A stretch of DNA of 64,000 nt, from contig CAVWLP010000002.1 in assembly GCA_963755915.1 (NCBI GenBank), positions 2,912,001 through 2,976,000 of the forward strand, read 5' to 3'. A model generated the notes under the pieces. It searched no databases. It saw only the letters and a program-made list of their open reading frames with translations, and was not told the DNA's origin. Origin of the DNA: an uncultured Phycisphaerales bacterium (GTDB lineage: Bacteria; Planctomycetota; Phycisphaerae; Tepidisphaerales; Tepidisphaeraceae). A program made the translations under genes and the position numbers. Position 1 is the stretch's first letter; every line of letters starts with the position of its first letter. Below are positions 1,082 through 5,672 of this stretch, one piece after another.

Positions 1082-1305
1082 AAAGACCTCCCTGCGAGAA
1101 GCTTATCCATAAGCATAAGCGTCAAAGACCGACAGCTACCGCATTATAGCGACAAGAAACGGATTCTGAACCGCCGATAACCTGTTTTCCCTCCGGCTGA
1201 TTCTTGCTCCGCTTGACGCTATGATAGCGGTGACCGATATTGAGTCGGCTCAGCGGCCTCCGCGCTGCGCGAGAGAGTGGAGCAGTAGAGAGTAGAACAG
1301 TAGAT

Positions 1306-1399: not shown

Positions 1400-1696
1400 A
1401 TGCGAAACGCCCGACACGTCATTGCTGTAACCCTGATGGCGACGGCCATTTGCGCCGATCGCTCTCTGGCCGCCGCGCCATCCGAACCCCTGGCTTCGCA
1501 TCTCGCGGGCCGGATCATCACCAGGCTTTCAATAAAGCTCCGCAGCGTCGTGCCCGCCGTCTGCATCTACAAGCCCCGGCAATTTGGCCTCGCCTGTGCC
1601 CGGGCGGCCAAGCCGCGATTCAACCTTTTCCGCGCCGATTTTGTCTCGCCTCAGCTTTCCCCCTTCCAGTTCCGCCTCCCTCCGCCCAGCGCCTGA
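1400..1696 (+). CDS. Small exported protein upstream of secA; candidate SecM-like arrest/monitoring peptide
   Basis: Signal-peptide-like N-terminus MRNARHVIAVTLMATAICADRSLA-AA; C-terminus FQFRLPPPSA; stop 60 nt before the secA ATG. Confidence 0.7.
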   Translation: MRNARHVIAVTLMATAICADRSLAAAPSEPLASHLAGRIITRLSIKLRSVVPAVCIYKPRQFGLACARAAKPRFNLFRADFVSPQLSPFQFRLPPPSA

Positions 1697-1756
1697 TTTT
1701 CCATTCCCGTCCGTTTTTCTGAGCTTACGCCGTAATTCTTTGATTAGAGGCGCTGT

Positions 1757-4700
1757 ATGGCACTCAATACATCTAAAATCCTGACCTCCGTTTTCGGAAG
1801 CCGCAACGAACGGCTCCTCAAGCGCTACCACAAAGCCGTCGATCAGATCAATGCGCTGGAACCCAAAATCCGCGCCATGACCGACGTCCAGCTTCGCGAA
1901 CGCACCAAGGACCTGCGCACCGGCCTGACCCGCGGAAAAATCCGCTCCGAGGACATCCTCCTCGAGGCGATGGCCATCATCCGCGAATCGATGGACCGCA
2001 ACATCGGCATCCGCTCGATCTTCGACCCCGACAACAATTTCGATCCCGACCAGTTCGACGACGAAATGCTCGAAGCCTACGACAGCGTGCAGCGCGAGCT
2101 GATCAGCACCGGCGTCTCCTGGCGGCAGGCGCCGATCCCGCCCAAAATTTATGACGGTGTGCGCAAGCTCTTTCCCGAAAGCCGTCCGCCGTTCCGCGCC
2201 CGCTGTTTCGACGTGCAGATCATCGGCGGGCTCGTCCTTTACGAAGGTAAGATCGCTGAGATGGCGACCGGGGAAGGCAAAACGTTCGTCGCGCCGCTCG
2301 CCTGCTTCGTGCGCTGTTTGGAAGGGTATCACTGCCATGTCGTCACGGTGAACGACTATCTCGTCCGCCGCGACGCCAACTGGATTCGCCCCGCCTTCGA
2401 GAACCTCGGCCTCACCGTCGGCTTCATTCAGTCCGACATGGAGCCCGGCGGCGACACCCGGCGGGCCGCCTATAACTGCGACGTCACCTACGGCACCAAC
2501 AGCGAATTCGGCTTCGATTTCCTTCGCGACAACATGAAAGACCAGCGCCGCCCAGCAGGTGCAGGGGCCGCTTCGAGTTTGTGATCGTCGACGAGGTCGA
2601 TTCCATCCTGATCGACGAAGCCCGCACGCCGCTGATCATCAGCGGTGCCGCCCACGACGACGCGGCGAAATACCGGGCGGCCGACATCGTCGCACGTAAA
2701 GTCATGGAGATCCACAAGCCCTATGCCGCCGCCGAGGCAGCCGAGGATGCCGCCAAGCGCGCCATCAAGACCGCCGAGGGCGACGAAGACAAGGCCAAGA
2801 ACGCCGGCGAAAAAGAGGCCGCCCGCAAGCGCCAGGAGCTGTCGAAGAAGCAGCTTGAAGAGGCCGACCAGACGCAAGGAAGCGGAGACGCAGTATTACG
2901 AGGTGGAGCTGGACCGAAAAAGCGTTCACCTCACGCACGAAGGAATTGCCGCCGCACAGGAAGCCGCGGGCGTCGGGTCAGTTCTACGTCGGCAACAACA
3001 TGGAATGGCCGCATCTGATGGAGCAGTCCATGCGCGCCCACGTCGTTTACGAGCGCGACAAGGATTACGTCGTGGAGCGCGGGCAAAGGGGGACGATGGA
3101 AGTCGTCATCGTCGACGAATACACCGGCCGCAAAATGGTCGGCCGGCAATGGTCGGACGGCCTCCACCAGGCCGTCGAGGCCAAGGAGAAGGTGCCGATC
3201 AAGGAAGAAACCCAGACCCTGGCGACCATCACCCTCCAGAATTTCTTCAAGATGTACAAGATCCTGCGCCGGCATGACCGGAACCGCCCAGACCGAAGCC
3301 GAGGAATTCGGCAAGATCTACCGCCTCGACGTCGTGACCATTCCCACCAACCGCCCGGTCGTCCGCGACGACAACGAAGACCGCGTCTATCGCACCGAGC
3401 GCGAAAAATGGGATTCGATCATCGAAGAGATCAAGGATATTTCCGACAAGGGCCGCCCCGTTCTTGTCGGCACCACCAGCGTCGAAAAGAGCGAAATGCT
3501 TTCCAACATGCTGAAGCGGAAGTACGGCATCGACCATGAAGTGCTCAACGCCAAGTACCACGAGCGCGAGGCACAGATCGTCGCCGTCGCCGGGCAAAAC
3601 CATAAGAACCCGCGCGGTGAAACCGTCGGCAACGTGACCATCGCCACCAACATGGCCGGCCGCGGCACCGACATCAAGCTGACGACAGAAACAACCCAGG
3701 CAGGGGGGCTGCACGTCATCGGCACCGAGCGCCACACCGCCCGGCGAATCGACAACCAGCTCCGCGGACGCTCCGGCCGCCAGGGCGATCCCGGCTCCAG
3801 CCGGTTCTACGTGAGCCTTCAGGACGAGCTGATGAAGATGTTCGCCGGCGAATGGACCATCAAAGTCCTCGGCTGGCTCGGCATGGAAGAGGGGATGGCC
3901 ATCGAAGACAAGCGCATCAGCAAGGGAATTCTCCGCGCCAGAAAGAAAGTCGAAGAGCGCAACTTCCTCGCCCGCAAAAATCTTCTCGAATACGACGAAG
4001 TGATGGACCACCAGCGCACGACCTTCTACGGCATGCGCCAGCAAGTTCTGCGCGGGCAGGACGTCGAATCGATCATCTGGGAAATGATCGGCGAGGCGAT
4101 CGCCGATGCCGTCGATAAATACATCACGCAGGATTACGTCGCCGCCACCGTTGCCGAATGGGCTCGCATCAATTTCGAGGTCAATATCGATCCCGAAGAC
4201 CTCATCGGCAAGCGCAACATCGACGAGCTCGATCAGTACATCAAGGCCCAGGCCCGCGCCGAAGCCGAAACCAACATCACCGCCACCATCGGTGAATTCA
4301 TGGGCGAAAGCGAAAACGAAGAGGAGACCACGAAAAACTGGGACACCAAGGGCCTGCAGAGCTGGGCCATGAGCCGGTTCCACGTGAACCTCTCCCAAAA
4401 CCAAATCCGCCAGATGCACCCCGACGACGTGGAGAGCCAGTTGCGCACCGCCGCCGTCGAGCAGATCGATCACCGCGACTGCACCGGGCTAATGAAATAC
4501 CTCGCCCCCAATTTCGCCGAGCAGGAGCTGGTGAACTGGGCGAAGGAAAAGTTTAATGTCGAGATCAAGATCGAGGAGTTCGTTCTCGACCCCAAGGGCC
4601 ACAGCCTTCTGCCCGCCGAGCAGATTGTCGAGCTGATCGACAAGCGCGCCCGCTCGGCGTACGCCCGCCGGGAAATCGACTACCCCGTCGAGCACGCCCT

Positions 4701-5597
4701 CACCTACGCCTACGGCGGACCCGAAGGCTTCACCGACCATCCCTACTCCGCCGAGTACATCCAGAAATGGACCGCCAGGAAATACGGCGAGAGCGTCACC
4801 ATCGACCAGATTCGCGCCGGCACCCTCCAGCAGCTTCACGCCCGCCTCATCGCCCTCCAGGAAAAATTCGTGAAGGGGGGCGAAATGGAAAAAACCGTCG
4901 ATGCCCTCATTGCCGCCCACCCGGAGACCGAGCCCCTGCGCCTCGCCTTCAACGAACGCTTCGGCGCCAAGCTCACGCCACGCGATTTCGAGATTCAGAT
5001 CAAAACCGACGAAAAAGACACGCGGATGCTCTGGCAGTCGGCAACTCCCGAGCAGGTGCACCAGATTCTCATGGAACGCGCCCGGCTCGTGATGCGCGAA
5101 GAGCTGACCGATCTCGAGCAGTTCGTCCTCATCCAGATTTTCGACCAGAGTTGGAAAGACCATCTTTACGCGATGGACATCCTCAAAAACGGCATCGGCC
5201 TCCTCGCCTTTGCCGAGCAGGACCCGCGCGTGCAGTTCAAGAAAGAAGGTTACCGCTACTTCCAGGAGATGATGTCATCCGTGCGCGACAAGGTGACCGA
5301 CCTGATCTTCCGCGCCGCGTGGTCGGCGCCGCCCAGGCCCGCAACGCCTACAAGGAAACCGCCGCGGTTCACGAAGCCCAGGGCGGGTATGGCGTCGCCG
5401 AAAACGTCGCCGCCACTGCCTCCGCCGCGCAAGGCCAGCCCACAGGCGAAATGGACGAAGCCTCCGGCCAAACTCAGGGTGAGGCCGCCAAGGTCAAAAC
5501 CATCGTCCGCGAAGCCCCCAAGGTCGGACGCAACGACCCCTGCCCCTGCGGCAGCGGAAAGAAATATAAAAAATGTCACGGCATCGGCGTGGCGTGA
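1757..5597 (+). CDS. secA: Preprotein translocase ATPase SecA (about 6 apparent indels)
   Basis: [96 protein letters not shown] and [25 protein letters not shown] across frames; shifts near 2537, 2572, 2870, 2975, 3270, 5320. Confidence 0.97.
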
Positions 5598-5631: not shown

Positions 5632-5672
5632 TCCCCCGCCCCCGGTACTCCGGGGGAGGGATGGGGAGGGGG
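5632..5672. repeat. REP-like palindrome, family A
   Basis: tcccccgcccccggtactccgggggagggatggggaggggg between convergent secA and GT41 genes. Confidence 0.8.

Follow-up and report, generated by a model that had tools for sequence, protein, structure and literature searches.

A conserved reading frame upstream of secA in a Phycisphaerae genome encodes a putative arrest peptide of the uA_LPPP class

Arrest peptides described upstream of sec genes

SecM of Enterobacterales is described as an exported monitor encoded before secA, whose arrest, close to its C-terminal end, uncovers a secA Shine-Dalgarno (SD) sequence otherwise sequestered in a stem-loop. RAPP-type peptides (ApdA, ApdP, and the RQH family) are exported products of uORFs preceding a sec gene and carry a C-terminal R-x-P-P motif by the stop codon, the Ala position of which is described for ApdA and ApdP as accepting small residues only. 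The uA_LPPP class was defined as secA-upstream uORFs of Phycisphaerae that encode a signal sequence and, among the 15 C-terminal residues, an LPPP motif (Fujiwara et al. 2024, Nat Commun 15:2711, PMC10987492). Its published members were collected by motif, are spread over many clusters and belong to Phycisphaerales, UBA1161, and WQYP01, orders within Planctomycetota. One homolog stalls Bacillus subtilis ribosomes (fAP 1, TAI 22.4) and, weakly, those of Escherichia coli in vivo (TAI 1.59); its stalling requires Leu110 and Pro111 (a Pro111/Pro113 combination was tested too), and by toeprinting the third LPPP codon, i.e. the second Pro, is in the P site (PMC10987492). That paper demonstrates neither secretion-dependent release nor secA induction for the class, and its main text contains no discussion of an mRNA structure for it.

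The window analysed here, a stretch of 64,000 nucleotides taken at its full length, contains a uORF of this kind at 1400..1696 (+ strand, as for all features below), which starts with the ATG at 1400, ends with the TGA at 1694-1696 and encodes 98 residues terminating in FQFRLPPPSA. It is separated by a 60-nt spacer from the ATG at 1757 of secA (1757..5597; SecA_DEAD, E 1.3e-64). The first-pass annotation of this DNA had described a 98-residue frame with a signal-like N-terminus and an FRLPPPSA end located 60 nt before secA, and all of these elements are indeed present. An alternative in-frame TTG at 1379 would extend the product to 105 residues, but the ATG is favoured by the relatives. Further upstream, a promoter-like site (TTGACG-17-GATATT, 1213..1241) is a possible start for a uORF-secA transcript; it is a consensus match only (9/12), in a scan that yielded 2 sites versus 0.3 expected in shuffles. 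The uORF has no Pfam family match (E of 0.1 or less), and a search for known RNA families across 1050-1900 returned a single chance-level match, far under its gathering score.

With secA directly downstream on the same strand, an N-terminal signal, a C-terminal LPPP, and a Phycisphaerae host, the uORF presents every element by which uA_LPPP is defined, and its product is very probably an arrest peptide of that class. It also resembles the described peptides in its length of about 100 residues and in the location of LPPP a few residues before the stop codon; a published UBA1161 member has 98 residues and a 92-nt spacer, compared with 98 residues and 60 nt here. We thus find a conserved and probably genuine member of a class already described, and the initial observation was correct but largely ordinary. 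The suggestion made at that time that related peptides may already be catalogued was right, as the class had been published in 2024. What sets the window's peptide apart is its subtype, S-P-F-Q-F-R-L-P-P-P combined with a signal ending of the ALCADR type. This FRLPPP subtype is missing from the 50 uA_LPPP sequences listed in PMC10987492, in the table of which 'RLPPP' and 'CADR' each have 0 matches.

Similarity to SecM is limited to the position of a monitor upstream of secA and, in silico, to an analogous helix over the SD in the window, which is not kept among relatives. There is no sequence similarity: the SecM arrest motif (FxxxxWIxxxxGIRAGP) and any SecM homology are absent from the uORF, the C-terminus of which reads SPFQFRLPPPSA, and the motif is LPPP instead. 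The idea of a SecM-like monitor lacking similarity to SecM is nevertheless supported, since the peptide matches the uA_LPPP definition and a homolog stalls ribosomes (PMC10987492). The RAPP-type peptides offer another parallel, as R-L-P-P-P retains its Arg in 31 of 32 loci, but its second residue is Leu rather than a small residue. RLPP has 0 occurrences among the motifs listed in the two papers on RAPP-like/RQH and uA_LPPP peptides, and the uORF contains none of R-A-P-P, R-G-P-P, R-A-G-P, and R-A-P-G.

Anatomy and conservation of the peptide

Simple sequence features delimit a signal-like N-terminus at residues 1-25 (1400..1474), comprising a basic n-region (MRNARH, net charge +2), a core of 13 uncharged hydrophobic residues (7-19), and DRSLAAA, which is followed by a Pro. 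The pattern M-(R/K)-x-x-R-H-V-I-A-V-T-L-M-A-T-A-I-C-A-D-R is kept in an alignment of 19 relatives (A1). The same alignment reveals a conserved basic amphipathic segment at residues 33-52 (1496..1555, SHLAGRIITRLSIKLRSVVP), in which A36 and L43 are invariant and R42 nearly so; during arrest, this segment would lie outside the exit tunnel. The C-terminal motif S-P-F-Q-F-R-L-P-P-P occupies residues 87-96 (1658..1687) and LPPP itself residues 93-96 of 98, i.e. within the last 15. Across 32 loci, the Leu and all three Pro are found in 32/32, the Arg in 31, the upstream Pro in 29, both Phe in 28, and the Ser in 25. The motif is written with four Leu, four Arg, and all four Pro codons, and such free synonymous variation under an invariant LPPP indicates that selection acts on the peptide. 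Two residues follow PPP in 28 of the 32 loci and three in the other 4, with variable sequence. By analogy with the homolog's toeprint, the arrested ribosome is predicted to hold the P95 codon (1682-1684) in its P site and the P96 codon (1685-1687) in its A site.

A profile built from 19 peptides ending in xLPPP was searched against 141 species-level genomes of the window's order. It matched in 108 of them, always upstream of secA, and only once in the window's own genome. Relatives have an ORF ending in xLPPP before secA at 26 of 30 loci, and the same architecture is found in other families of the class (9/10, 5/5, 7/7, and 6/6 in f7, f15, f12, and f21, respectively). The position directly before secA is thus kept in at least five families, while the remainder of the peptide has diverged beyond recognition: in other orders the residue before LPPP is N, D, S, A, or H, the Arg not being kept, and an hhalign comparison of the FRLPPP type (A1) with the family's CLPPP type (the G016 peptide) detects no homology (probability 5%). 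Another genome of the window's family, G042, carries a uORF ending in LPDPFRYCLPPPAC, nearly identical to the end of the published UBA1161 member. The spacer between uORF and secA ranges from 54 to 218 nt across loci. A conserved LPPP before secA, one of the checks proposed from the first pass, is therefore strongly borne out.

Could the uORF nonetheless be open by chance, in DNA rich in GC, or reflect errors in the long-read assembly, which is error-prone elsewhere in the window? Spurious overlapping ORFs are frequent in the region, and the adjoining secA is split over several frames in the window because of six single-base assembly indels: relative to public short-read contigs, it has a surplus base at 2541, 2575, 2864, 2980, and 3265, and a C is missing behind 5314, while short-read relatives show open SecA frames of about 1260-1400 residues. 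However, the segment 1315-1804 shows zero differences from independent short-read contigs obtained from four public soil runs (one study), so that the uORF, both stem arms discussed below, and the secA start are not assembly errors. As the frame is moreover kept with synonymous variation in the 32 loci and is present in 108/141 genomes, we consider this explanation ruled out for all practical purposes.

A second alternative is that the uORF product is a small exported protein serving a separate function, PPP causing an EF-P-dependent pause with no role for secA. Residues 33-52 are as conserved as the C-terminus, which a pure spacer would not need to be, and PMC10987492 demonstrates no regulation by the uA_LPPP class. 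This reading is nevertheless improbable: the peptide remains next to secA in at least five families despite its divergence, its invariant residues are precisely LPPP, fixed 2-3 codons from the stop, and the tested homolog arrests strongly in living cells of B. subtilis, a species with EF-P (PMC10987492). EF-P is also encoded in the window's genome. A bare PPP pause would then normally be relieved, in agreement with the need for a conserved context around the motif.

Possible links between arrest and secA

An SD-like AGAGG precedes secA at 1746..1750, within an AGAGGCG that is invariant in 12/12 genomes of the genus. Bases 1687-1694 (CAGCGCCT), which comprise the last base of the P96 codon, the Ser and Ala codons, and the T of the TGA, match the reverse complement of 1748-1755 (AGGCGCTG) exactly. 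This second segment, the 3' arm, shares bases with AGAGG, ends one base short of the secA ATG and is paired in the minimum free energy (MFE) structure. The stem is hence present as originally described, i.e. an exact 8-nt complement overlapping the SD and reaching within 1 nt of the ATG. The 5' arm follows the predicted P-site codon within about 15 nt and is therefore, given the generally known size of the ribosome footprint, inside the footprint of a ribosome stalled there. A perfect duplex of at least 8 bp between the zone of the stalled ribosome and that of the SD arises in 24 of 5000 shuffles (about 0.5%), and one with the same geometry at 47 of 9086 genomic positions; if the 5' arm may lie anywhere in 1600-1735, the duplex is found in 33 of 2000 shuffles. 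Folding was another of the proposed checks (for 1670-1770); applied to 1660-1790, it recovered the stem in the MFE structure, but the overall energy is ordinary (z -0.88, with 39/200 shuffles folding at least as well).

The effect of a stalled ribosome was evaluated by partition-function folding, once with the footprint free and once with it blocked, in the window and in 35 loci of relatives. In the window, the SD and start codon become in silico 6.55 kcal/mol cheaper to open once a ribosome is stalled, and 0/25 shuffles reach this value. Stall-specific opening (shuffle fraction of at most 0.08) was found in only 4 of the 35 relatives, and close kin gave fractions of 0.60, 0.88, and 0.28; unmasking of the SD was thus rejected as a family-wide device. 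Within the genus, RNAalifold on 12 genomes retains 5 pairs (-3.23 kcal/mol) with no covariation credit, and 79.2% of cells are paired compared with 77.5% in shuffles, a level reached by 129/500 of them. In two genomes (G009 and G006) both arms are altered (ATCGCC with AGGCGAT) and still pair, and a third (G003) keeps the pairing via two G-U pairs; three others (G008, G010, and G007) have a mismatch in the stem and three (G004, G012, and G011) are without a complementary 5' arm. The covarying pairing that the first-pass annotation proposed to look for did not materialize, the covariation score (0.134 versus 0.117 in shuffles) being reached by 85/500 shuffles and only a 5-bp core being common in the genus. 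The proposal that a stalled ribosome covers the anti-SD arm is accordingly supported only in part: geometry and predicted opening agree with it in the window, but the 5-bp genus core, the lack of a covariation excess, the three genus members without a 5' arm, and the 4/35 relatives do not. It is possible, though on balance doubtful, that the 8-bp helix is a working switch.

We also asked whether CCUCC, an anti-SD-like sequence, could generally pair with the SD from within the LPPP codons. In the FRLPPP clade, CCT accounts for 23/64 codons at the first and second Pro, compared with shares of 6.5% (uORF bodies) and 3.5% (secA). This enrichment was not replicated outside the clade, as CCT was counted at 7/54 in 27 LPPP uORFs from four other families (Fisher p 0.16) and at 2/20 in 10 divergent uORFs of the same family, and the candidate was rejected. 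Three loci with doubtful ORFs (L096, L106, and L107) and the second ORF in L070 were left out of these counts.

The same arrest peptide could be coupled to secA otherwise, the helix being fortuitous or accessory. The foremost option would be a block to Rho-dependent termination in a C-rich, G-poor spacer; alternatively, the mRNA may be stabilized or kept unfolded. In TnaC, a ribosome stalled at the end of the leader shields the adjacent RNA from Rho. The window's locus resembles this system in a stall near the end of a short leader ORF, a C-rich, G-poor spacer, and the presence of Rho, which is encoded in the genome, but TnaC responds to tryptophan, lacks a signal sequence and arrests the ribosome at its own stop codon. 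By base counts, the spacer from the uORF to the secA SD (1697..1745) is pyrimidine-rich with C exceeding G (C 13, G 6, A 5, and T 21 in 1697-1741). C exceeds G in 32 of 35 spacers of relatives (pooled C 948, G 645, A 415, and T 816), the helix is not conserved while the peptide is, spacers span 54-218 nt, and a stall only 3 codons before the stop implies that the stalled ribosome would cover the stop-adjacent RNA. All of this is compatible with coupling that does not depend on the helix. However, the skew of 0.37 in the window is ordinary, about 20% of 45-nt segments of the region reaching 0.3 on either strand, the relatives entering the spacer count are not independent, and most of them retain an SD-like sequence for secA itself, which also fits translational control. 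Intrinsic termination between the uORF and secA was rejected as a general device, since terminator-like sites occur in only 5/35 spacers and none was found on the + strand of the window's spacer; this scarcity equally counts against helix-independent coupling. We hold such coupling to be rather unlikely, albeit worth keeping in mind.

A probable secretion monitor for Phycisphaerae

Our preferred reading, to which we assign a probability of about 0.7, is that of a secretion-monitoring peptide of the uA_LPPP class, with the helix as its most likely link to secA in this genome. Conservation, selection on the peptide, architecture, and the existence of the helix are directly observed, and the remaining steps would be as follows. 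The uORF and secA would be co-transcribed, and the N-terminal signal sequence would bring the nascent chain to the Sec machinery. As extrapolated from the published homolog, the ribosome would stall at L93-P94-P95-P96, with the P95 codon (1682-1684) probably occupying the P site, and the conserved upstream context P-F-x-F-R would aid this stall. Active export would pull on the nascent chain and release the arrest, while under poor export the ribosome would stay on the uORF and secA expression would increase. Sitting on 1687-1694, it would free AGAGG from its helix with 1748-1755. We infer release by export, secA induction, and the switching role of the helix.

More speculatively, monitor and switch may have been fused at the genus level: the peptide's two final sense codons plus the stop codon would themselves form the anti-SD arm, so that a ribosome arrested at R-L-P-P-P would itself unmask secA, and the FRLPPP clade would represent a distinct motif variant with an EF-P-resistant stall via P-F-x-F-R. 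We regard this combined scenario as unlikely on present evidence.

These findings do not overturn the current understanding of the class. They show that a genuine class of regulatory nascent peptides can be recovered from sequence alone, and they extend the 2024 catalogue with an FRLPPP subtype found in 108/141 genomes of one Phycisphaerae order, for which (if this order is UBA1161, as we infer) the published list holds a different subtype only. The helix in the window provides one concrete candidate route from LPPP arrest to secA. The comparison of relatives indicates that it is not a general solution, and coupling of the Rho type is worth considering. If the fusion of monitor and switch proved true, it would for the first time tie a uA_LPPP arrest mechanistically to the translation of secA.

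A conserved coding uORF upstream of secA

The uORF runs on the + strand from an ATG at 1400 to a TGA at 1694-1696 and encodes 98 residues ending in FQFRLPPPSA; the gene downstream, which starts at 1757, is secA (SecA_DEAD, E = 1.3e-64). Its N-terminus consists of MRNARH (net charge +2), 13 uncharged hydrophobic residues and then DRSLAAAP, which by simple features is the predicted layout of a Sec signal sequence. The first-pass annotation had described this locus correctly in all details, namely the ORF, its C-terminus, its signal-like start, the complementarity of the two stem arms and their coordinates.

The host assembly (three contigs, 81% complete) spreads secA (1757-5597) over five reading frames, and we therefore compared the window with public short-read contigs. 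These contigs, which derive from four soil-metagenome runs within one study, span 1315-1804 with zero differences from the window, so the sequence can be trusted over the uORF, the two stem arms and the start of secA. Within secA they carry one base fewer at each of 2541, 2575, 2864, 2980 and 3265, and an additional C behind 5314; the frame breaks are therefore long-read assembly indels, and secA is not a pseudogene.

An ORF ending in xPPP plus two or three residues lies directly upstream of secA in 26 of 30 loci from relatives; it is absent from L024, L028 and L029, which belong to other families of the class, and from L030, a locus of the same genus in which the uORF frame is broken. In an alignment of 19 peptides, L93, P94, P95 and P96 are invariant and P88, F91 and R92 nearly so, and the derived profile matches 108 of the 141 species-level genomes of the window's order (a single-family order), with a single match in the window's own genome. 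The expected conservation of LPPP upstream of secA is thus borne out. The motif S-P-F-Q-F-R-L-P-P-P is retained across 32 non-identical loci, yet its codons vary: Leu and Arg are each written with four different codons, and Pro with all four of its own. Selection therefore acts on the peptide, not on the RNA. The tail beyond PPP is variable in sequence (two residues in 28 of these loci, three in four), and the spacer between uORF and secA ranges from 54 to 218 nt. One genome flagged as unpublished (G014) contributes one alignment row and one locus to these counts, and the conclusions are independent of it. We conclude that the uORF is a genuine gene.

A basic amphipathic segment at residues 33-52 (1496-1555; consensus HxAGRLIxRLSxNLRRVxPA) is conserved as strongly as the arrest motif in the alignment from the window's order. 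This segment would be outside the ribosome at the time of arrest.

An anti-SD helix in this genome and its lack of conservation in relatives

Read as its reverse complement, the stretch 1687-1694 (CAGCGCCT) matches 1748-1755 (AGGCGCTG) exactly, and the 3' arm overlaps the AGAGG Shine-Dalgarno sequence (1746-1750) and stops one base short of the secA ATG. A perfect duplex of at least 8 bp linking the zone of the stalled ribosome to that of the SD arises in 24 of 5000 shuffles (33 of 2000 with a wide 5' zone) and, in the same geometry, at 47 of 9086 genomic positions. Folding places the helix in the minimum free energy structure, but the fold energy of the region is ordinary (z -0.88). If a stalled ribosome is assumed to cover -12 to +15 around its P-site codon, blocking this footprint at the predicted P-site codon in silico makes the SD and start codon 6.55 kcal/mol cheaper to open, a drop reached by none of 25 shuffles (mean 1.92). 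Given the rarity of the duplex and this SD opening, the geometry proposed in the first-pass annotation, in which a ribosome stalled on LPPP would cover the anti-SD arm, holds for this genome.

The comparative data are not behind it. Within the genus, 12 genomes have the 3' arm inside an invariant AGAGGCG, and the 5' arm corresponds to the uORF's two-codon tail, which varies. A helix of 7-8 bp is retained in the window's genome and in G001 and G002; pairing is kept by changes on both sides in G009 and G006 and through two G-U pairs in G003; G008, G010 and G007 have a mismatch in the helix, and G004, G012 and G011 lack a complementary 5' arm. Overall, 79.2% of stem cells pair, a level attained by 129 of 500 shuffles (77.5% in shuffles), and the anticipated covariation did not emerge, as the score of 0.134 (0.117 in shuffles) was reached by 85 of 500 shuffles. 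RNAalifold gives only a 5-bp core (-3.23 kcal/mol) with zero covariation credit, and only 4 of 35 loci show an SD opening specific to the stall (shuffle fraction at most 0.08). This genome does have the anti-SD helix, which is not conserved; it may reflect a recent strengthening confined to this lineage, or chance. An RNA family search at the locus found no family.

Other coupling routes and genomic neighbourhood

Of 35 spacers between uORF and secA, 5 contain a terminator-like hairpin; the window's own has none. The one in L012 (genome G023) is canonical, with a T run (TTTTT), at +23 to +41 after the uORF stop; those in L018, L056, L059 and L061 are weaker. Attenuation may be used by some lineages. 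In TnaC-type regulation, the stalled ribosome blocks Rho loading, and a similar block in the spacer is a live rival explanation for how arrest is coupled to secA, as Rho is encoded in this genome and the spacers are pyrimidine-rich, C outnumbering G in 32 of the 35 loci (pooled counts: 948 C, 645 G, 415 A and 816 T), although related genomes are not independent in these counts and the C/G skew of the window's own spacer (1697-1741) is not exceptional. The spacers could be Rho loading regions.

EF-P is also encoded. A bare PPP would thus be rescued, consistent with a requirement for the conserved P-F-x-F-R context. Within the FRLPPP clade (L002-L062), 23 of the 64 codons for the first two Pro of LPPP (1679-1684 in the window) are the rare codon CCT, whose share is 6.5% in uORF bodies and only 3.5% in secA; this results in CCUCC at 20 of 32 loci. 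This enrichment is replicated neither in other families (7 of 54) nor in divergent uORFs of the window's family, and we do not regard CCT/CCUCC as an anti-SD device of general use.

With no more than two mismatches, a REP-like element that includes TACCAGGGGAGGGG has eight matches in the window (0.52 expected). Two + strand copies (1332-1345 and 1358-1371) separate the promoter-like site upstream of the uORF (1213-1241) from the uORF itself; - strand matches lie at 5634, 29161, 34426, 37552, 56424 and 61387, one copy lying immediately behind secA. In G001, of the same genus, the uORF is preceded by a related copy. Upstream, a divergent 237-residue ORF (368-1081, - strand) has a signal-like N-terminus, no Pfam match and a promoter-like site at 1170-1143. 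Elsewhere in this genome, beyond the window (G000:C2:1434183-1434512), there is a further SecA-like gene, shorter than secA, with an open frame of about 644 aa and 49% identity across the motor core; the listed relatives have it as well.

Relation to known arrest peptides

The uORF has no Pfam match and its arrest motif is unlike that of SecM, and SecM identity was rejected. A RAPP type was likewise rejected: R-L-P-P is not among the RAPP-like motifs as listed, where position 2 tolerates small residues only, whereas the window's uORF has Leu there.

The main text of Fujiwara et al. 2024 (PMC10987492) defines a class, uA_LPPP, as secA-upstream uORFs with an N-terminal signal and LPPP in the last 15 residues (LPPP in 45 of 52 sequences; 50 retained). 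One homolog completely arrested the ribosomes of B. subtilis in vitro (fAP 1) and stalled them strongly in vivo (TAI 22.4), and stalled E. coli ribosomes in vitro only. That main text reports no secretion-driven release, secA induction or mRNA structure for the class, and we found no other relevant paper on it in the literature.

As judged from its sequence, the window's peptide has each feature in this definition of uA_LPPP, and the taxonomy of its host is compatible with the class. Neither "RLPPP" nor "CADR" matches any row of the paper's table, all 50 uA_LPPP entries included, so the FRLPPP subtype is absent from that table. The uORF of G042, from the window's family, ends in LPDPFRYCLPPPAC, a near-match to the single UBA1161 member published there, which makes UBA1161 the probable order of the window. 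A Phycisphaeraceae MAG whose uORF is of the LLNLPPPTL type is related to the window at class level only. Comparing the FRLPPP and CLPPP types by hhalign gave no homology (probability 5%), in agreement with the paper's account of uA_LPPP members scattering over clusters.

The same architecture recurs across the bacterial class, at 9 of 10 loci in family f7, 5 of 5 in f15, 7 of 7 in f12 and 6 of 6 in f21, and among the 13 genomes of the window's own family that the profile missed, 10 have it too; it is rare in f5 (2 of 10, QMPPPC type) and was seen at 0 of 2 loci in f13. These counts leave out three doubtful loci (L096, L106, L107), and two loci are stubs at contig ends. The earlier suggestion of a real regulatory uORF, whose relatives might already be catalogued, was thus right. 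As the uA_LPPP class has been known since 2024, what is new here is the FRLPPP subtype within it.
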